NCBI GenBank assembly: GCA_031460175.1
Contig: JAVKGW010000004.1
Coordinates: 59,303-123,302 of the forward strand
Length of the DNA stretch: 64,000 nucleotides
Direction: 5' to 3'
DNA from: Candidatus Sysuimicrobium tengchongense
Lineage (GTDB): Bacteria > Sysuimicrobiota > Sysuimicrobiia > Sysuimicrobiales > Sysuimicrobiaceae
A program made the position numbers and the translations under genes. This document shows, piece by piece, positions 20,887-30,978 of this stretch (position 1 is its first letter; every line of letters begins with the position of its first letter). The notes under the pieces were generated by a model. The model worked only from the letters and a program-made list of their open reading frames with translations. It was not told the origin of the DNA and made no database searches.

Positions 20887-23339
<2,453 letters not shown>

Positions 23340-23477
23340 CTGCTCCCTGCCCTTCTCCCCTCACCGGATCCCTCCACCAAATCTCCCGATCCTTCCCCTC
23401 CCTTGCATTCCGCGTGCCGGTTCCGGACCCCTCATCCGGAGAAACGAGCCCGGTGGTCTGTTTCTGCCCGCTGCTCC

Positions 23478-23507
23478 AAAACAGAAACCGCCGGAGTTCC
23501 CGGCGGC
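23478..23507 (-). terminator. Intrinsic terminator after greA: hairpin GCCGCCGG-GAACT-CCGGCGGT followed by TTTCTGTTTT (minus-strand sense)
   Basis: The inverted repeat and U-rich tract lie 30 nt downstream of the greA stop. Confidence 0.5.
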
Positions 23508-23536
23508 AGGACCCTCCCCTCCACATCCCCGTGTCC

Positions 23537-24013
23537 TCAGGTCAGGATCTGGACGACCTCGTAGACCGCCCTGCCGCCGGGGGTCTGAACCTCCACCACC
23601 TCTCCGGGACGTCGCCCGAGCACGGCCTGCCCCACCGGGGACTTGTGGGAGATCCGGTTCTGCGCGGGATCCGCCTCCGCAGACCCCACGATCTGGAACT
23701 CGAACTCCTCGCCCGTGCCGAGCTCCCGCAGCCGCACCCGCGAACCGATCTCCACGGTGCCGTTGGAACCGTTCTCCGCGATCACCCGGGCGTTCCGGAG
23801 CAGCGTCTCCAGCTCCCGGATCCTCCCCTCCACGAACGCCTGCTCGTTCTTCGCGTCCTCGTACTCCGAGTTCTCGCTGAGATCCCCGAACTCCTTGGCC
23901 TGCCGGATCCGCTCGGCCACCTCGCGGCGCCGGACCGTCTTGAGGTACTCCAGCTCCTCCTCCAACTTCCTGAACCCGATGGGCGTAAGGAAGATCTCCT
24001 CCATCCGCGTCAC
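23537..24013 (-). CDS. greA: Transcription elongation factor GreA
   Basis: The protein is 158 aa and shows typical GreA blocks (LTPIGFRKLEEELE...SENSEYEDAKNEQAF). Confidence 0.9.
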   Translation of the reverse strand: MTRMEEIFLTPIGFRKLEEELEYLKTVRRREVAERIRQAKEFGDLSENSEYEDAKNEQAFVEGRIRELETLLRNARVIAENGSNGTVEIGSRVRLRELGTGEEFEFQIVGSAEADPAQNRISHKSPVGQAVLGRRPGEVVEVQTPGGRAVYEVVQILT

Positions 24014-24014
24014 C

Positions 24015-25190
24015 TCACCCGGAAAAGAAACACCGTGGACGATCCTCGCCCACAGTGTCGCCGTTGCCCCCGGTGGACCGGGCTGCCCCCATTATAGGGG
24101 ACCGGGAAGATCCTGCCAAGCCCACCCCCCGGGCCCGATCCCGGATGCGATCCACCTCCTCGTCGGGGAGGGTCCGCTCCAGCCGGCGGAAGGCCGCGAG
24201 GCGGAACCCGTGCTTGTCCGCCAGCCGCGCGATCTCCTGGACCTGCTCCACCGTGAGATCCCGCCCCAGGCTGAAGTTCTCGTAGCGGCCCTCCAAGGCG
24301 AGGATCATGGTCTCCGCCATGCAGGCCTCACAGGTGCCCGGCGGATACCCGAAATCGAACCCGAACTCCGCCTCCCCCGGAACCTCGATCACGCTCCCGT
24401 CGATGACCAGCACGTCGTCCCGGTGCTGGTACACAGCCGGGGAGACGTTTCGGGGCCGTGCCACGTCGCACACCACGGCTCCGGGCTTGAGGTCCTCGGG
24501 CTCGATGAGGACCCGGGGGGCGCTCGTGACCGCGAGGACGATGTCCGCATCCGCCACCCCGGTGCGGGGGTCCGTGCTCACCGTCACCTCCGCGTCGGAT
24601 TCCCCCTGAATCCGCTCCCGGAGGGATTCCAGGCGCCTGCGGCTTCTGGCCACGAGCACCAGGGAGGGGACCTTGCGGGCCAGGATGCGGGCGCACACGG
24701 ATCCGATGGACCCGGTGGCGCCCACCACCGCGGCCCGGGCCTCCGAGAGGGGGATCCCCATCCGGTCCGCGGCCCGCAGGGCCCCCTCGATGGCGGTGGC
24801 GGCGGTGTAGGAGTTCCCCGTGGTGACCGCAAGCCGGGTGTTCGCGGCAACCGTCACCCCCGCGTCTCCCACCACCTTCGTGAAGGCCCCCAGGCCCAGG
24901 ATCTTCGCCCCTAACCGCTCTGCCAGCCGAGCACACTGGATGAGCCGGTGGTACACGAACCGGAGGTCGGATTCCAGCAGGGTGCGCGGGGTGAGGGGGA
25001 GCCCGATGAGCCACCCTTCCGCCCGGGAGCCGACGGGGGAGCGGATGCCCGTGATGTGGGAGAGCTCCATGGGGGGGAGGCGCTTGAAGACCTCCTCCAC
25101 CCAGCGGGGCGGAAACCACCGGGTGAAGGCAAACCGCCAGCTGAAGTGCACGGGCTCCAGCGGGTGGAGGACGAACGCGAACCGTTCCAT
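24015..25190 (-). CDS. NAD(P)-dependent oxidoreductase resembling cyanobacterial acyl-ACP reductase (AAR)
   Basis: Several blocks align by eye with AAR: FAFVLHPL, TTGNSYTAA, VAVVGATGSIGSVCARIL, AETMILALEGRYENFSLGRD, EIARLADKHGFR. The start is chosen at the internal ATG (MERFAFVL). Confidence 0.6.
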   Translation of the reverse strand: MERFAFVLHPLEPVHFSWRFAFTRWFPPRWVEEVFKRLPPMELSHITGIRSPVGSRAEGWLIGLPLTPRTLLESDLRFVYHRLIQCARLAERLGAKILGLGAFTKVVGDAGVTVAANTRLAVTTGNSYTAATAIEGALRAADRMGIPLSEARAAVVGATGSIGSVCARILARKVPSLVLVARSRRRLESLRERIQGESDAEVTVSTDPRTGVADADIVLAVTSAPRVLIEPEDLKPGAVVCDVARPRNVSPAVYQHRDDVLVIDGSVIEVPGEAEFGFDFGYPPGTCEACMAETMILALEGRYENFSLGRDLTVEQVQEIARLADKHGFRLAAFRRLERTLPDEEVDRIRDRARGVGLAGSSRSPIMGAARSTGGNGDTVGEDRPRCFFSG

Positions 25191-25215
25191 GGGGGATCCG
25201 CCCCTCCTCTCCATC

Positions 25216-26184
25216 TTAGCGCTCCATGGGCGTGGACCGCGCGGCCTCCCACACCCTCCGGAGGGGGTCGGAGCGAGGCGCGTTCAGCCAGCTCACCCGC
25301 GGCCGGAAGCCGAACCGGTGCATCCACGTCATGTACTCCTCCGGGGTGATGGTCTCCGGATCCTTCCCGGCGAACGCCACCACCAGGGCCTGGAGCACGT
25401 TGGTGGCGAAGGAACGCCCTCCGAGTTCCGGGCCCGTGGTCACCAGCAGGGCCACCCCGCGTTGCCGCAGATCCTCCACGTCCTCCGGGGTGACGGTCTG
25501 CGTCAGCACCACCCGGTCGGGGAGCTCCCGGGGCATGTAGCGCCGGATGTAGTGGAAGTCCCCGCACACCACCTCCGCCCACCGGAAGGCCCAACCGAAC
25601 CGCGGCCGGCGGCGCTCCTGCTTTTCCCCCGTGGGGTAAAACCAGCGGAAGGGCAGGCGGGAGATCACGGGGAGGAGCAGCGCCCCCAGGATCTGGACGC
25701 TGCGCAGGGAGCGTAGGGGAATCGGAAGCCCCAGAGCGAAGAGGAAGTCCCCGTACAGGACCTGCGCCCCGACCTCCGCCAGGGCCTCCGCCATCCCGTA
25801 CCGGTCCACGGAGTTCACCTGGAGCACCCTCCTCCCCCGCAGGGAGAGCCCCACCTCCCGGGGCAGGAACTCCCGCACCAGGTACCGCTCCCAGGTGTGC
25901 TTGATGCCGTTCCCGTCCACCACGGGCGTGTGCCGGACGTCCCGCACCAGGCGCACGATGTCCCGGAGGTAGTAGCGCCGGCGGCCCGTTTCCACGAAGA
26001 GATCCGCGCCTCCGATCCCGATGGCGTCCACCTTCCCGTCCAGCTCCCGGAGCCACCGGCGGAACCGTGCGTAATCTCCGTCCGTCCCGATGCGCTCGAT
26101 GCGCACAGGCTCTCCCAGGAGCACCAGCTCCACCCGGGCGTCCCGCCGGGAGGAGCCCAGGCTCAGGCTGACCACCCGCTTCAT
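25216..26184 (-). CDS. Conserved hypothetical protein (N-terminal VVSLSLGSSRRD block; family not recognised)
   Basis: The ORF is 322 aa. It lies 25 nt upstream of the AAR-like gene on the same strand. Confidence 0.5.
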   Translation of the reverse strand: MKRVVSLSLGSSRRDARVELVLLGEPVRIERIGTDGDYARFRRWLRELDGKVDAIGIGGADLFVETGRRRYYLRDIVRLVRDVRHTPVVDGNGIKHTWERYLVREFLPREVGLSLRGRRVLQVNSVDRYGMAEALAEVGAQVLYGDFLFALGLPIPLRSLRSVQILGALLLPVISRLPFRWFYPTGEKQERRRPRFGWAFRWAEVVCGDFHYIRRYMPRELPDRVVLTQTVTPEDVEDLRQRGVALLVTTGPELGGRSFATNVLQALVVAFAGKDPETITPEEYMTWMHRFGFRPRVSWLNAPRSDPLRRVWEAARSTPMER

Positions 26185-26232
26185 CCCGGGAGTAGGGTAA
26201 CACGGCTCTCCCCCCGCGGGGGGAGAGCCGGT

Positions 26233-27027
26233 TTAGGGAACGCGGAGCTCCGTGCGGTTGCGCAGGTACAGGATGCGCAGGCCCTCCAGCGTGAGGAGAG
26301 GGTCGTGGTGGTCGATGCAGGAGGCCTCGTGGAGGACGAGCTCCGCCCACCCACCGGTGGCCACCACCGTGGCCTTCCCGCCCAGCTCCGCCTTCATGCG
26401 GGCCACAATCCCCTCCACGAGGCCCACCGCGCCCCAGAAGATCCCCGCCTGCATGGCGGCCACGGTGCTGCGGCCGATGACACTTCGGGTGCGGACGAAC
26501 TCCACCCGGCGCAGCTGCGCCGCGTGCTCCACCAGGGCCTCCGCGGAGACCCCGATGCCGGGCGCGATGGCACCGCCCAGGAAATCGCCCTCCCGGGAGA
26601 CCGCGGTGAAGGTGGTGGCGGTCCCCAGATCCACCACGATGGTGGGACCTCCGTATCGGGCGTAGGCGGCCACCGCGTTGCAGATGCGATCCGCGCCGAC
26701 CTCCCGGGGGTTCTCGTACAGGATGCGCATGCCGGTCCGGATCCCCGGCCCCACCATGAGGGGCTCGCATCCGAAGTATTTCTCGCTCAGCCGCTCCATG
26801 GTATCCACCAGGGGCGGGACCACACAGGCCACCGCCACGTGCCGGACGTCCCCGGTTCGAAGGCCATGGTGGTGGAAGAGGGCACCCAGCAGCATCCCGT
26901 ACTCGTCCTCGGTCCGGGCGGGGTCCGTAGCGATCCGCCAGTGCACGACCGGAGGGCCTTCCCGCTCGGGCGGATCGTAGACCGCGGCCTTGATGAGGGT
27001 GTTGTTCACGTTGAGGGCGAGCAGCAT
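26233..27027 (-). CDS. coaX: Type III pantothenate kinase
   Basis: The N-terminus MLLALNVNNTLIKAAVY and the ASKHA fold blocks are present. Confidence 0.9.
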   Translation of the reverse strand: MLLALNVNNTLIKAAVYDPPEREGPPVVHWRIATDPARTEDEYGMLLGALFHHHGLRTGDVRHVAVACVVPPLVDTMERLSEKYFGCEPLMVGPGIRTGMRILYENPREVGADRICNAVAAYARYGGPTIVVDLGTATTFTAVSREGDFLGGAIAPGIGVSAEALVEHAAQLRRVEFVRTRSVIGRSTVAAMQAGIFWGAVGLVEGIVARMKAELGGKATVVATGGWAELVLHEASCIDHHDPLLTLEGLRILYLRNRTELRVP

Positions 27028-27028
27028 C

Positions 27029-27817
27029 CTACACCAGCCGTGCGGCCCTCAGGGCCCGGTACACGGGCACGGTCACCACCACCGCCAGCAGGGCCTCCGG
27101 GAGTCCGTGGGTGGCCCCCACCACCACCGCGGCGCCGGGGGGCATGAGCTGAGGGAACCGCAACACGATCAGTCCCAGCACCCCCACGGTATTCGTGAGC
27201 GTGCCCACCACCGCGGCCGCGGCCACGGGCGCGTGCTCGCCCCGGAGCAGGAGGTACGCCACCCCGGCCACCCCGAGCCCGCCCAGGACCGCCGCCAGGG
27301 GGTGCGGAGCTGTGGTCGAGGTCACCGCGTGGTAGAGGTTCACGAGCCAGCTCGGCTGGATCTTTCCCGCGCGGAAGGCCGCCTCGAAGGCTTTGGCACC
27401 TGGTCCCAGCACCGCATACACCGCGGCCCCACACGCCAGGCACGCGACTCCCCGGGCGGCGCGGCGGCTGAGGACCGCGAAGGCGTAGGCGGCGAGCACC
27501 CCGATGAGGATCCTCGGCCCGAAGGCGATGAGGGGATCCTTGAAGAAGGGGAGGGTGGCGCGGCTGAAGCTGAAGAAGCCGAACACCGCCCCCACCAGTG
27601 CCCCGGCGGCTGGACCCCGCGCGATGCCCGCGAGGATGGCGGGGAGATGCATGGTGGTGGCGGCTCCCGCCGGCGTGGGCGCGGGGATGAAGCCGATCCC
27701 GGGGACGAGGCCCATGACCGCGCTGATGGCCCCCAGGACCCCAACCACGGTGAGATCCCGGGTCTGCAAACGAAACCCCCTCCGCAGCTGCGGAGAGGGC
27801 AGGTCTCCTGCACCCAT
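27029..27817 (-). CDS. Integral membrane protein, possibly an ECF-transporter S component (substrate unknown; adjacency to coaX suggests pantothenate)
   Basis: The translation has multiple TM helices and is Gly/Ala-rich. It is 1 nt from the coaX start. The start codon is uncertain. Confidence 0.45.
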   Translation of the reverse strand: MGAGDLPSPQLRRGFRLQTRDLTVVGVLGAISAVMGLVPGIGFIPAPTPAGAATTMHLPAILAGIARGPAAGALVGAVFGFFSFSRATLPFFKDPLIAFGPRILIGVLAAYAFAVLSRRAARGVACLACGAAVYAVLGPGAKAFEAAFRAGKIQPSWLVNLYHAVTSTTAPHPLAAVLGGLGVAGVAYLLLRGEHAPVAAAAVVGTLTNTVGVLGLIVLRFPQLMPPGAAVVVGATHGLPEALLAVVVTVPVYRALRAARLV

Positions 27818-27974
27818 GCTGCACCTCCGTTCCAGTCTGGATCTTCCAGTACCGGACGGACCGAATCTCCTTCGGTTCGCCGGGTCCGGCTCCTCCGGGA
27901 GGATGCCGGCCAGTTCAGACTAAACCATACCACACCATACCACCGGAATCAGGGGTTGAGCAAGACCGCGGGCT

Positions 27975-28937
27975 TTACCCGGAGACCCCCTCGCCCCGGT
28001 CCCCGAGCCCCGGAACCCCGTGCAGGCCCCGGGCGAGCCGGACGGCCCGCCGGATCGCCTCTGCCACCACCTCCGGGATCACCGCGGCCACCGCGTCGTA
28101 GGCGGCCTCCATCGTCCCCGTGGCGAGGGCGAAGACCACGTCCCCGTCGAGGGAGGTGTGGGAGGGGGAGACCGCCCGGCCGATGCCGTGATGGGCCAGG
28201 CGGGCGAGGCGGTTCGCCGCCACCTTGTCCAGCCGGGCGTTCGTCGCGACCACGCCGATTACCGTGTTCCCCAGCGGCCGAAACCCAACGCCCCGCTTCA
28301 AGAGGGATCGGGAGCCCACAAATGCCCCGGTTTGCGGATCCCGGGTGCCCGCGAGGACCGTCCCGTCCTCCTCCACCACGTCTCCGACCGCGTTCACCAC
28401 CATGAGGGCGCCCACCACCACCCCATCCCCGAGCCACGCAGACCAGCTTCCCACCCCACCCTTCATGGCCCCCGCAGGCCCGAGAAGCTTGCCCACCGTG
28501 GCCCCGGTCCCCGCCCCCACGCTTCCCTCCTCCGCGGGCCCGGAGGTCGCGGCCTCACAGGCCCGGTAGCCCATCTCCGGTCCCGGCCGGACGTCCGACC
28601 GGCCCAGGGCCAGGTCGTAGATCACCGCGGCGGGTACGATGGGTACCCGTGCGACCCCGGTCTCGAACCCCACGCCTCGCTCCTCGAGGTACCGCATCAC
28701 GCCGTCCGCCGCGGCTAGACCGAAAGCACTCCCTCCGGTGAGGAGCACCGCGTGCACCTCTTGCACCGTCGCGAGGGGATGCAGGAGATCCGTCTCCCGG
28801 GTCCCCGGAGCAAATCCCCGGACCTCCACCCCGGCCACAGCCCCCCGCTCGCAAAGCACCACGGTGCACCCGGTGGCCGCCTCGCGGTCCGTGGCGTGCC
28901 CCACCCGGATTCCTTCCACGTCCGTGATGCCCGGCAT
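27975..28937 (-). CDS. P1/S58 family peptidase (DmpA/L-aminopeptidase-like)
   Basis: The ATG at 28937 gives MPGITDVEGIRVGHATD... The upstream part of ORF 27975..29240 is artefactual. Confidence 0.8.
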   Translation of the reverse strand: MPGITDVEGIRVGHATDREAATGCTVVLCERGAVAGVEVRGFAPGTRETDLLHPLATVQEVHAVLLTGGSAFGLAAADGVMRYLEERGVGFETGVARVPIVPAAVIYDLALGRSDVRPGPEMGYRACEAATSGPAEEGSVGAGTGATVGKLLGPAGAMKGGVGSWSAWLGDGVVVGALMVVNAVGDVVEEDGTVLAGTRDPQTGAFVGSRSLLKRGVGFRPLGNTVIGVVATNARLDKVAANRLARLAHHGIGRAVSPSHTSLDGDVVFALATGTMEAAYDAVAAVIPEVVAEAIRRAVRLARGLHGVPGLGDRGEGVSG

Positions 28938-28938
28938 C

Positions 28939-29700
28939 TTACGCCTCCCCCGGGGCGAGCTCCCCCGCCACGACGCGCATGGCGGACCCGTCCGGGAGGC
29001 GCAGGAGGAGGGCTCCATCCCCGTCCACGGCCTCCGCGATCCCCTCGTAGGTTCCGCTGGGGAGGTGGACGCGCACCCGCCGGCCCAGGGTGGTGCTGCG
29101 GTCGCGCCACCACCGGAGGACGGTGGCGAAGTCGTCGCCCCGAAACGCCTCGTACACGACCTCCAACTCCCCGCACACCGCGCAGAACAGGTCCCCGAGA
29201 TCCACGGGTGTGCCGAGTTCCGCGGCAAGGGAGGTGGCACCTTCCGGGAGGTCCGAGGAGGGGTTGGCGTTGAGGCCGATCCCCAGGACCACCCACCGCG
29301 CGTCTGGTCCCGCCTCCGCGAGGACCCCCCCCACCTTTTTCCGGCTCACCAGGAGGTCATTGGGCCAGCGCAGTCCCACCGTCAGCCCGCATGCGCGCTC
29401 GATGGCCCGGGCCGCGGCCACCCCGCCCACGAGGCTGAGTTTGGGGACCTCCGGGGGGGAGACGGGGGGACGGAGGACCACGGAGAGGTAAAGTCCGCCC
29501 CGGGGTGAGACCCAGGGACGGCCCAGGCGGCCCCGGCCCGCGGTCTGCACCTCCGCCACCACCACGGTCCCCTCGGGAGCCTGGGCCGCGGCCAGCTCCC
29601 GGGCCAGATCCTGGGTGGAGGAGACCACCTCGAACACGTGGAGGAGACGTCCCACGTACCGGGTACGCAGCCGGTCACGGATGCCTGCGGCGAGGCTCAC
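28939..29700 (-). CDS. birA: Biotin--[acetyl-CoA-carboxylase] ligase, catalytic and C-terminal domains only (no N-terminal HTH)
   Basis: The translation contains the GRGRLGRPW motif. The GTG at 29700 overlaps the folB stop (GTGA). Confidence 0.8.
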   Translation of the reverse strand: MSLAAGIRDRLRTRYVGRLLHVFEVVSSTQDLARELAAAQAPEGTVVVAEVQTAGRGRLGRPWVSPRGGLYLSVVLRPPVSPPEVPKLSLVGGVAAARAIERACGLTVGLRWPNDLLVSRKKVGGVLAEAGPDARWVVLGIGLNANPSSDLPEGATSLAAELGTPVDLGDLFCAVCGELEVVYEAFRGDDFATVLRWWRDRSTTLGRRVRVHLPSGTYEGIAEAVDGDGALLLRLPDGSAMRVVAGELAPGEA

Positions 29701-30065
29701 GGTGCGGGCTCCCTCAACCGCTCTACCCGTACCGCGGCGTATCCCAGGGCTCCCCCCAGTCGCACGTGCGGCTTGCGGACCTCCACCCGCACGCCCTGGA
29801 CCCTCTCCAGCGCCAGCAGCCGCCGGGCGATCTCCTCCGCCAGCGCCTCGAGGAGCTGACGGGGCGGCCCCTCCACGACCTCCCGCACGGCCCGATACAC
29901 CTCCCGGTAGTCCAGGGTATCCTCCAGGCGGTCGGAGGCACCGGGCCCTCGGAGGTCGCAAACCACCTCCACGTCTACGAAGAAGGGCTGGCCGCGCTCG
30001 CGCTCCTCCGGCCGAACCCCGTGGAACCCGTAAAAGGCCATGTCCTTGAGGAGGATCCGGTCCAC
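29697..30065 (-). CDS. folB: Dihydroneopterin aldolase
   Basis: The protein is 122 aa and shows FolB-like blocks (MDRILLKDMAFYGFHGV...). Confidence 0.9.
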   Translation of the reverse strand: MDRILLKDMAFYGFHGVRPEERERGQPFFVDVEVVCDLRGPGASDRLEDTLDYREVYRAVREVVEGPPRQLLEALAEEIARRLLALERVQGVRVEVRKPHVRLGGALGYAAVRVERLREPAP

Positions 30066-30066
30066 C

Positions 30067-30978
30067 TCACACCTCCGGATCCCGCCACCCCCGGAGCACC
30101 GCGTCCGCTACCCGCATGGCCCGGACCACCGCCCGGACATCGTGCACGCGCACGAGATCTGCCCCGTTCGCCGCGGACAGGACGCAGAGGGCGATGGTCC
30201 CCTCCACCCGCTCCCTGGGAGGTGCGTCCTGGAGGATCCGGCCGATGGTGGACTTGCGGGAGGGACCCACGAGGATGGGGCATCCCAGGGCCCGCAGCTC
30301 TCCGAGCCGTCGGACCAGCTCCAGGTTGTGCTCAGGCCGCTTGCCGAAACCGAACCCCGGGTCCACCACGATCCGGTCCGGGGAGATGCCCTGCTCTCGC
30401 GCGAAGGCGATGCGCTCCGCGAGGAATGCCCGGATCTCCCCCATGACGTCCTCGTAGCGGGGATCCCGCTGCATGTCCCTCGGGGTCCCCTTCATGTGCA
30501 TGAGCACCACGGGACACCCGAACTCCGCCACCACCCGACTCATCTCCGGATCCGCCCGAAGGGCACTGGTGTCGTTCACCATCCAGGCTCCCGCCCGCAG
30601 GGCCCTTCGGGCCACCTCGGCTTTCTGGGTGTCCACGCTGATGGGAACGTCCACGGCCGCGGAGAGGGCCTCCACCACGGGAATCACCCGCCGCAGCTCT
30701 TCCTCGAGAGGCACCGGATCCGCCCCGGGCCGGGTGGACTCGCCGCCCACGTCCAGGAGGTCCGCGCCCGCCGCCACCATCTCCTGAGCCCGGCTCAGGG
30801 CGGCTTCCACGGGATCGGGGAGGCGGAGCAGGCCGTCCCCGCTGAAGGAGTCCGGGGTCACGTTCAGGATCCCCATCACGAGGGTCCGCTCCCCCAACCG
30901 CAGCCGGTATCGGCCGTAAGCGAGCTCGCGCACGGTTTCCAGCATCCCTCTCCCGTGGGCGGCAGACGGAAGCGTCAC
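30067..30978 (-). CDS. folP: Dihydropteroate synthase
   Basis: The motifs GILNVTPDSFSGDG and DVGGESTRPGA are present. Confidence 0.9.
   Translation of the reverse strand: MTLPSAAHGRGMLETVRELAYGRYRLRLGERTLVMGILNVTPDSFSGDGLLRLPDPVEAALSRAQEMVAAGADLLDVGGESTRPGADPVPLEEELRRVIPVVEALSAAVDVPISVDTQKAEVARRALRAGAWMVNDTSALRADPEMSRVVAEFGCPVVLMHMKGTPRDMQRDPRYEDVMGEIRAFLAERIAFAREQGISPDRIVVDPGFGFGKRPEHNLELVRRLGELRALGCPILVGPSRKSTIGRILQDAPPRERVEGTIALCVLSAANGADLVRVHDVRAVVRAMRVADAVLRGWRDPEV

Follow-up and report, generated by a model that had tools for sequence, protein, structure and literature searches.

A predicted acyl-thioester reductase of Candidatus Sysuimicrobium tengchongense and its genetically linked partner protein, candidate subunits of one enzyme

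We analyzed a stretch of 64,000 nucleotides from Candidatus Sysuimicrobium tengchongense (contig JAVKGW010000004.1, positions 59,303 to 123,302 of the forward strand; this whole stretch is referred to below as the window), whose GC content is 70%, with a focus on two adjacent genes that encode a 391-residue reductase and a 322-residue protein referred to here as its partner. A first-pass annotation, made from the sequence alone, had placed the two genes on the same strand 25 nt apart, and their coordinates and the spacer between them were confirmed, as follows:

25216-26184, minus strand: partner gene (P322, 322 aa), an open reading frame whose protein starts with MKRVVSLSLGSSRRD
25191-25215, minus strand: intergenic spacer of 25 nt, with a Shine-Dalgarno-like GGAGG at 25207-25203
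24015-25190, minus strand: reductase gene (391 aa), open reading frame confirmed; the 391-aa start is also the one used in the public annotation of this contig

Promoter-like and terminator-like sites were sought in the spacer (25191-25215) and none was found. An alternative in-frame ATG at 25214, 1 nt past the TAA of the partner gene, would lengthen the reductase to 399 residues. Because each gene has thousands of homologues at ~60% identity, both are judged to be real genes rather than chance open reading frames of a sequence with 70% GC. The two proteins are identical to MDR7417217.1 and MDR7417216.1, which come from hot-spring metagenome-assembled genomes (MAGs) labeled as Armatimonadota, and the nearest locus of a named genome is that of "Candidatus Sysuimicrobium calidum", with amino-acid identities of 91–93%.

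The best profile match of the reductase was the PigE N-terminal region of NCBIfam (NF053554; 218.7 bits, E 1.6e-64, model positions 46–355 of 837), and the NCBIfam model of the cyanobacterial acyl-ACP reductase (AAR), TIGR04058, scored 122 bits (E 3.2e-35) vs an equivalog cut-off of 449.7. The same two proteins were matched in the PDB, with E-values of 2.6e-39 for PigE (4PPM) and 1e-27 for AAR (6JZQ), each over ~300 residues. On these matches, we assign the 391-residue protein to the acyl-thioester reductases of the AAR/PigE type and not to AroE. The public databases name it differently, either 'shikimate dehydrogenase' or 'predicted amino acid dehydrogenase', with 'quinate 5-dehydrogenase' as the name of the partner, and non-cyanobacterial homologues of the AAR type carry the label "shikimate dehydrogenase" by the thousands. 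Were these names right, the pair would be the shikimate and quinate 5-dehydrogenases of aromatic metabolism, a view for which the NCBI names can be cited along with the match of the reductase's NAD(P) domain to PF01488 (47 bits), the only Pfam domain found in that protein. However, the AroE models of NCBIfam (TIGR00507 and related ones) reached 19–21 bits (E ~1e-4) against cut-offs of 200–295, the AAR and PigE models scored 6–10 times higher, no shikimate-binding N-terminal domain was detected in the reductase with Pfam or NCBIfam profiles, and the partner matches no dehydrogenase model and has no glycine loop. The profile scores rule out an AroE-type dehydrogenase identity, and with it the placement in the shikimate/quinate dehydrogenase group proper that the first-pass annotation had named as the outcome that would refute its AAR-like reading. 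We see virtually no chance that the public names describe the pair correctly.

The AAR motif blocks listed in the first-pass annotation were all located at verified coordinates, and they lie along the gene together with several arginines as follows:

24813-24824, minus strand: TTGN motif, where the N-terminal lobe meets the dinucleotide-binding lobe; T123, G125 and N126 invariant in 40 homologues
24702-24722, minus strand: GATGSIG dinucleotide-recognition loop, residues 157-163; aligned with AAR 162-GATGDIG-168
24633-24650, minus strand: ARSRRR segment; R182 and R186 aligned with AAR R189 and R193
24288-24329, minus strand: EACMAETMILALEG helix, then RYENFSLGR; Cys290, the predicted acyl-enzyme nucleophile, at 24321-24323
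within 24261-24266, minus strand: R310, aligned with AAR R314
24204-24212, minus strand: HGF motif

The window sequence at the GATGSIG loop is AAVVGATGSIGS, where the first-pass annotation had VAVVGATG.IGS. The functional elements of AAR are its GATGDIG loop, Cys294 as the acyl-enzyme nucleophile, R189, R193 and R314 at the extra phosphate of NADPH, and the VASM loop (PMC7089970). In the reductase, Cys290 lies within EACMAET and aligns with C294 of AAR (ACFAEA of 6JZQ) as well as with the 'GCMAET' segment of PigE, and VTSA at residues 221–224 is the counterpart of the VASM loop. Six residues, G157, G160, G163, R182, S223, and Cys290, are also invariant across the 40 reductase homologues. In the structure of a related terminal amidation domain (TAD), the Thr-Thr-Gly equivalent of TTGN touches the catalytic Cys (bioRxiv 10.1101/2024.10.28.620694). 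The reductase has in common with cyanobacterial AAR the fold, the sequence family (E 1e-27), TTGN, GATGxIG, the three NADPH-phosphate arginines, VxSx and the acyl-accepting Cys, and the chemistry expected of it would likewise be the reduction of a thioester to an aldehyde via an acyl-enzyme.

The N-terminal domain of PigE is reported to reduce a thioester to an aldehyde, which is then used by the aminotransferase domain of the same protein (PMC8341465). The whole of that reductase domain is matched by the protein from the window, including the catalytic motif CMAET, and the protein is nearer to this domain than to the cyanobacterial AAR, for which it falls far under the equivalog cut-off. The AAR-like assignment of the first-pass annotation hence stands in that the AAR model is matched and the Cys and NADPH residues are kept, but has to be amended in that the PigE N-terminal region is nearer (219 vs 122 bits). 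Unlike PigE, however, the reductase has no C-terminal class-III aminotransferase and no prodigiosin cluster, and its 219 bits compare with a cut-off of 850 bits. No aminotransferase gene is present within ±10 kb of the reductase in the public gene table. A tblastn search of the window for aldehyde-deformylating oxygenase (ADO), with an ADO sequence as the query, gave no match at E<=0.01, and no ferritin-like gene occurs in the Pfam gene table for ±10 kb, both of which agree with the first-pass remark that the window holds no ADO. Since the scores are under the cut-offs and there is neither an ADO in the window nor an aminotransferase domain, the reductase is not an equivalog of AAR or of PigE.

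Comparison of related loci showed that the partner and the reductase are functionally linked, as the first-pass annotation had supposed in proposing that the two genes act together. A total of 80 genome loci with the partner were found, 75 of which had enough downstream sequence to judge, and in 56 of these 75 informative loci the reductase lies directly downstream of the partner, with gaps of mostly 3–150 nt. The adjacency persists in loci of Fimbriimonadales without nearby coaX, greA, or clpC. In addition, the two proteins occur as single-chain fusions of 680–830 aa, in which the N-terminal part is the partner module and the C-terminal part the reductase module, i.e., in the same order as the genes. 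Fusions were found in the 50% representative library (P0265, P0303, P0342, and P0362) and in 80 metagenome loci, as well as in >100 clusters at 90% identity, the sources of which are Candidatus Wallbacteria, Candidatus Riflebacteria, Anaerolineae/Chloroflexota, and Blastocatellia/Acidobacteriota. It is because of the adjacency in most informative loci and the widespread fusion that we conclude that the two are linked in function. This association also distinguishes the reductase from AAR, whose partner is ADO and which has neither a 322-aa partner of its own nor such a module fused to its N-terminus. The taxa are different as well, the reductase being from Armatimonadota/CSP1-3, Chloroflexota, Acidobacteriota, and Bacillota rather than cyanobacteria. 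The public names of the fused proteins are 'serine carboxypeptidase', 'dehydrogenase' and, once, 'pentatricopeptide repeat protein'. Judged against the profile results, none of which lends them support, the names of both families and of the fusion conflict, and that of 'quinate 5-dehydrogenase' has probably spread from fused proteins that match PF01488.

The partner was described in the first-pass annotation as a conserved protein of no recognizable family, which is correct at the level of sequence. Its single sequence gave no match to Pfam, NCBIfam, or the PDB, a profile of 52 family members (30–69% identity) gave no match to the PDB, and none of the 52 members matched any Pfam family. The family is nevertheless a large one, with >4,600 matches in a database of 90%-identity clusters and at least 915 clusters at 50% identity, 208 of them below 1e-30. 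At the level of fold the description no longer applies, as the partner looks like a degenerate paralogue of the AAR type. Residue conservation was counted over 151 diverse members (29–69% identity), and ~10 residues are kept in at least 95% of them, mostly polar residues or glycine, with S8, R31, D90, G91, D146, and G208 all reaching that level. The corresponding motifs are:

26140-26175, minus strand: N-terminal strand and loop VVSLSLGSSRRD; S8 and G10 conserved in at least 95% of the 151 members
25900-25920, minus strand: VDGNGIK; D90 and G91 near-universal, at the position of the TTGN junction motif of the reductase
25795-25815, minus strand: NSVDRYG, after the first strand of the second lobe, in the place of the reductase GATGSIG
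within 25747-25752, minus strand: D146, invariant, at the end of the strand that follows NSVDRYG
25366-25419, minus strand: GRSFATNVLQALVVAFAG; Asn262 at 25399-25401, where the reductase has Cys290

The partner has a two-lobed fold with AAR topology. The secondary-structure elements follow a parallel order in both halves of one fused protein, and on this order VDGNGIK would be positionally equivalent to TTGN. Motif relics common to both families are hhGhGG/A, (D/T)G, N/C-x-x-E, and GF(R)(P/L): V-D90-G91-N-G of the partner is set against TTGN of the reductase, N262-x-x-(E/Q) against C290-x-A-E at the start of the catalytic helix (the motif N-x-x-E-A paralleling C-x-A-E-T), and FGFRP against HGFRL. 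The family consensus at NSVDRYG, S-[AG]-h-D-R-[YWF]-G, is not a glycine-rich dinucleotide loop, and of the 151 members, 130 have Asn and 10 have Asp at position 262, while none has Cys there. Since both the glycine loop and the Cys are lost, the latter with Asn262 in its stead, the partner would be unable to perform Cys-dependent thioester reduction, but appears to have a conserved polar site of its own. We consider it quite probable that the partner is an ancient, diverged paralogue with the AAR fold and that it has since lost the loop and the Cys. The TAD of the nonribosomal peptide synthetase (NRPS) CarI (PDB 9E4S) differs from it in having a GxGxxG, an invariant Cys and a fusion to the NRPS, none of which the partner has, the latter being free-standing or fused to the reductase with no NRPS neighbors. 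Enzymes of lipid and polyketide synthesis in which a catalytic subunit is accompanied by a dead paralogue include the KS/CLF of type II polyketide synthases (PKSs), where the active-site Cys is changed to Gln, and HadAB. The amide residue in place of Cys and the side-by-side genes are like those of the pair, but the fold and chemistry are different, so these systems serve as a lead only.

The genes that surround the pair in the window are housekeeping genes and for that reason give no clue to its function, and unbiased clustering of the neighbors of unfused loci likewise returned housekeeping genes only (coaX, ECF, greA, clpC, ridA, and glmU). The fused genes of other phyla, in contrast, have neighbors of a different kind. 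A gene for a wax ester synthase/diacylglycerol acyltransferase (WS/DGAT) lies near the fused gene in 11 loci, often directly adjacent to it, an Fe-alcohol dehydrogenase (Fe-ADH) in 10 loci (in eight of them directly upstream and divergent), PhaR-like/phasin genes in eight, a short-chain dehydrogenase/reductase (SDR) resembling fatty acyl reductases (FAR-like; PRK07201/thioester-reductase domain) in seven, a PlsC-type acyltransferase in six, and a patatin in four. Combined, such lipid-type neighbors are found in 30 of 85 fused loci (14 of 35 lineages at 70% identity), and in 23 of the 56 fused loci having at least 3 kb of flank, whereas a gene present a few times per genome would be expected by chance within ±8 kb in about one of 85 loci, a figure that is a rough estimate and not a computed test. 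The context of the fused genes is the metabolism of neutral lipids, wax esters, and fatty alcohols, which fits an enzyme that makes fatty aldehyde. The first-pass suggestion of an aldehyde or alcohol for lipid metabolism gains from these neighbors in other phyla, although nothing in the window links the pair to lipids. In addition, the separate alcohol dehydrogenases beside the fused gene argue that the partner module is not simply an aldehyde reductase. Fatty acyl-CoA reductases of the SDR type (FARs; PF07993; PRK07201), which feed WS/DGAT in bacteria that form wax esters, would have the same role as the one suggested here, the supply of reduced acyl chains beside WS/DGAT, phasin-like, and acyltransferase genes, but they belong to an unrelated protein family, and the FAR-like SDR genes sit beside the fused gene and not in its place. 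A protein of 142–154 aa with no Pfam or NCBIfam match adjoins the fused gene in seven loci of six lineages (e.g., L084:12599-13027 and L107:2771-3232), often together with a FAR-like SDR, an acyltransferase, and WS/DGAT.

One locus of Candidatus Wallbacteria (L085:3106-6077) has genes for an aldehyde dehydrogenase and a class-III aminotransferase 2–5 kb upstream of the fused gene, and phasin and PhaR-like genes directly downstream of it on the same contig. The aminotransferase recalls the combination of reductase and transaminase in PigE, here in trans. Together with the PigE reductase domain being the best profile match of the reductase and an NRPS terminal domain being the second-best fold match of the partner, this locus could be taken to indicate a role in secondary metabolism like that of PigE, TamH, or the NRPS terminal TAD, in which an aldehyde is released for amination or cyclisation. 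However, apart from that single locus, no PKS, NRPS, aminotransferase, or other cluster genes were found near the pair in the window or in 165 related loci, and the family, with ~60% identity across phyla, is too widespread and too conserved for such a role, which we hold to be highly improbable.

On balance, we lean towards the view that the pair is a two-subunit acyl-thioester reductase in which the partner, as a degenerate paralogue, handles the substrate or the product, and which provides fatty aldehyde for lipid metabolism. The two genes would encode two subunits of a single enzyme, present as one chain in many other phyla. An acyl group would be transferred from acyl-ACP or acyl-CoA to Cys290 of the 391-aa subunit, and NADPH, which GATGSIG would bind and R182, R186, and R310 would hold in place, would reduce the acyl-enzyme to a free aldehyde. 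The partner, whose polar site of S8, R31, D49, D90, R128, D146, D209, and N262 appears strictly conserved, would pair with the reductase as a pseudo-dimer and either present the acyl-thioester or take over the aldehyde, the product most likely being a medium- or long-chain fatty aldehyde. Separate dehydrogenases could then convert this aldehyde to an alcohol for neutral or envelope lipids. The analysis shows the family of the reductase, its catalytic residues, the linkage and the fusion of the two genes, and the fold of the partner, and from these we infer the physical pairing, the role of the partner, the substrate, and, for Candidatus Sysuimicrobium tengchongense itself, the fate of the product.

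Several of our findings weigh against the two-subunit reductase. In 19 loci the partner has no reductase within 6 kb, and no conserved replacement partner gene was found in these reductase-less loci; conversely, in a Thermaerobacter MAG (L089:8001-9107) the reductase stands alone between an S1-domain gene and lon, within a block of sporulation (yabP-yabQ-divIC) and housekeeping genes. The two genes thus need not be paired in cis. A fused protein modeled with AlphaFold had a pLDDT of 87.5 but a pTM of only 0.68, and so the model does not establish a fixed interface between partner and reductase. With hhalign, run with shallow and with diverse alignments, the partner and reductase families were not significantly similar (E 0.21 and 0.06, probability <1%); the two runs had an identical register over the C-terminal 110 residues, again without significance, and this register is used here only as a tentative residue mapping. 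A Foldseek search of the PDB with the partner gave AAR the highest TM, but this was only 0.42–0.44 and no better than that of glutamate dehydrogenase, and AAR was surpassed in E-value by periplasmic binding proteins and amino-acid dehydrogenases. None of the WS/DGAT, Fe-ADH, FAR-like SDR, PlsC-type, phasin/PhaR, or patatin genes is present in the 64-kb window, and the same lipid queries, together with the ADO sequence, gave no match over the 80 unfused genome loci. Finally, the invariant polar residues of the partner suit an enzyme or a ligand binder better than a passive scaffold.

The latter point could mean that the partner is an active enzyme that performs the next or the previous step, in which case the fusion would be a two-enzyme channel. 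The reaction could be the reduction, hydration, or condensation of the aldehyde, or the preparation of the acyl donor, at a site made up of Asp90, Asn262, Arg128, and Asp146, which would have taken the place of Thr-Gly, Cys, and the glycine loop. Such an activity would account for ~10 residues being so highly conserved in spite of the divergence of the family, and the location of Asp146, an invariant residue with which the second strand of a Rossmann-like lobe ends, would be typical of adenosine-ribose binding. Furthermore, the partner is kept under selection where no reductase adjoins it, and in one case it is fused to an enzyme other than the reductase. That protein, P0281 (762 aa; L088:1364-3652), is known from a single metagenome contig and consists of an alpha-oxoamine synthase-like pyridoxal phosphate enzyme of the BioF/Kbl/SPT family (bioF model, 212 bits) to whose C-terminus the partner module is fused, with no reductase module. 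As one example, it hints that the partner module serves acyl-thioester-using enzymes generally. The gene upstream of the P0281 fusion was considered as a possible reductase and proved unrelated to it. Arguing against an active second enzyme, Asp127 of the partner replaces the second glycine of the dinucleotide loop, where a clash with the pyrophosphate would be expected from the sequence, and the Fe-ADH and FAR-like SDR genes beside the fused genes speak against a built-in aldehyde reductase. We regard an active second enzyme as rather unlikely.

On the minus strand of the window, the pair is embedded in the order folP, folB, birA, S58 peptidase, ECF S-component, coaX, partner, reductase, greA, and clpC, with its immediate neighbors located as follows:

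26233-27027, minus strand: coaX, type III pantothenate kinase (PF03309 in the public gene table), 48 nt upstream of the partner gene
23537-24004, minus strand: greA, start 10 nt past the stop codon of the reductase gene

The synteny of coaX and the partner is kept in CSP1-3/Armatimonadota relatives, as is the order ECF S-component, coaX, partner, reductase. In 'Ca. Thermofontivivens' (L081:7183-8927), the partner lies 3 nt after coaX and is followed by an ABC sugar transporter, and a reductase is absent. A role of the pair in cofactor metabolism in this lineage, e.g., the conversion of a malonyl- or short acyl-thioester to a semialdehyde for the synthesis of beta-alanine, pantothenate, or CoA, would be in keeping with that order and with the partner remaining next to coaX where the reductase gene is absent. 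However, the link to coaX is limited to one clade in which an old housekeeping synteny (folP-folB-birA...greA-clpC) embeds the pair, neither Fimbriimonadales, where ridA and glmU are the neighbors, nor any of the fused forms has it, and aminotransferase and pan genes are lacking within ±10 kb, all of which make a cofactor role very unlikely. The same Thermofontivivens contig has a 389-aa fusion of HPPK (folK) and a deoxynucleoside kinase between folB and birA (L081:2012-6244), whereas in the public gene table for the window folB is directly followed by birA (27975-30978), with no folK at that position.

The last ~35 codons of the reductase gene show no conservation among homologues. Both a near-consensus sigma-70 promoter (TTGGCA-17 nt-TATAAT, 11 of 12 matches; 24119-24091, minus strand) and, downstream of it, a 14-bp hairpin with a T-tract (24059-24029, minus strand) lie within these codons, just upstream of greA (ATG at 24004). 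About 0.2 promoters as good as this one would be expected by chance in this stretch of 70% GC. The promoter and hairpin may be greA's own promoter with a leader or an attenuator. An Rfam scan of 23300-28000 returned chance miRNA matches only.

To our knowledge, AAR-type reductases have been studied almost only in cyanobacteria, in relation to alkane biofuels, and in a few pigment pathways. Literature searches turned up no paper that deals with the partner family or with free-standing homologues of AAR from outside the cyanobacteria. The closest literature is that on AAR, PigE, and TAD, i.e., the type of enzyme is known, and the partner module and the physiological setting suggested here are undescribed. 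For the partner family, Pfam and NCBIfam contain no model, no structure has been solved, and the name in use is misleading. The adjacency, the fusion, and the link in fold turn two mis-annotated families into one testable system, which would be a clean case of an enzyme that keeps a degenerate paralogue as its partner. A bolder proposal, which we put forward tentatively and with some doubt, is that the pair represents an unrecognized and widespread bacterial fatty acyl reductase system, with the partner as a new family of enzymes derived from the AAR fold. The Asp-Gly/Asn site of the partner, in place of Thr-Gly/Cys, would then act on the acyl-thioester or on the aldehyde in a new step, and the system would supply the fatty aldehyde or alcohol from which Chloroflexota, Acidobacteriota, Armatimonadota/CSP1-3, Wallbacteria, and Riflebacteria make wax esters and further lipids of the neutral or envelope type. 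For the genome analyzed here, the practical gain is a corrected annotation. Should the neighboring WS/DGAT, Fe-ADH, and phasin genes reflect what the system does, it would provide a new two-module reductase for the engineered production of fatty aldehydes and alcohols, and could explain the source of the fatty alcohol of wax esters in bacteria of the Chloroflexota and Acidobacteriota type.

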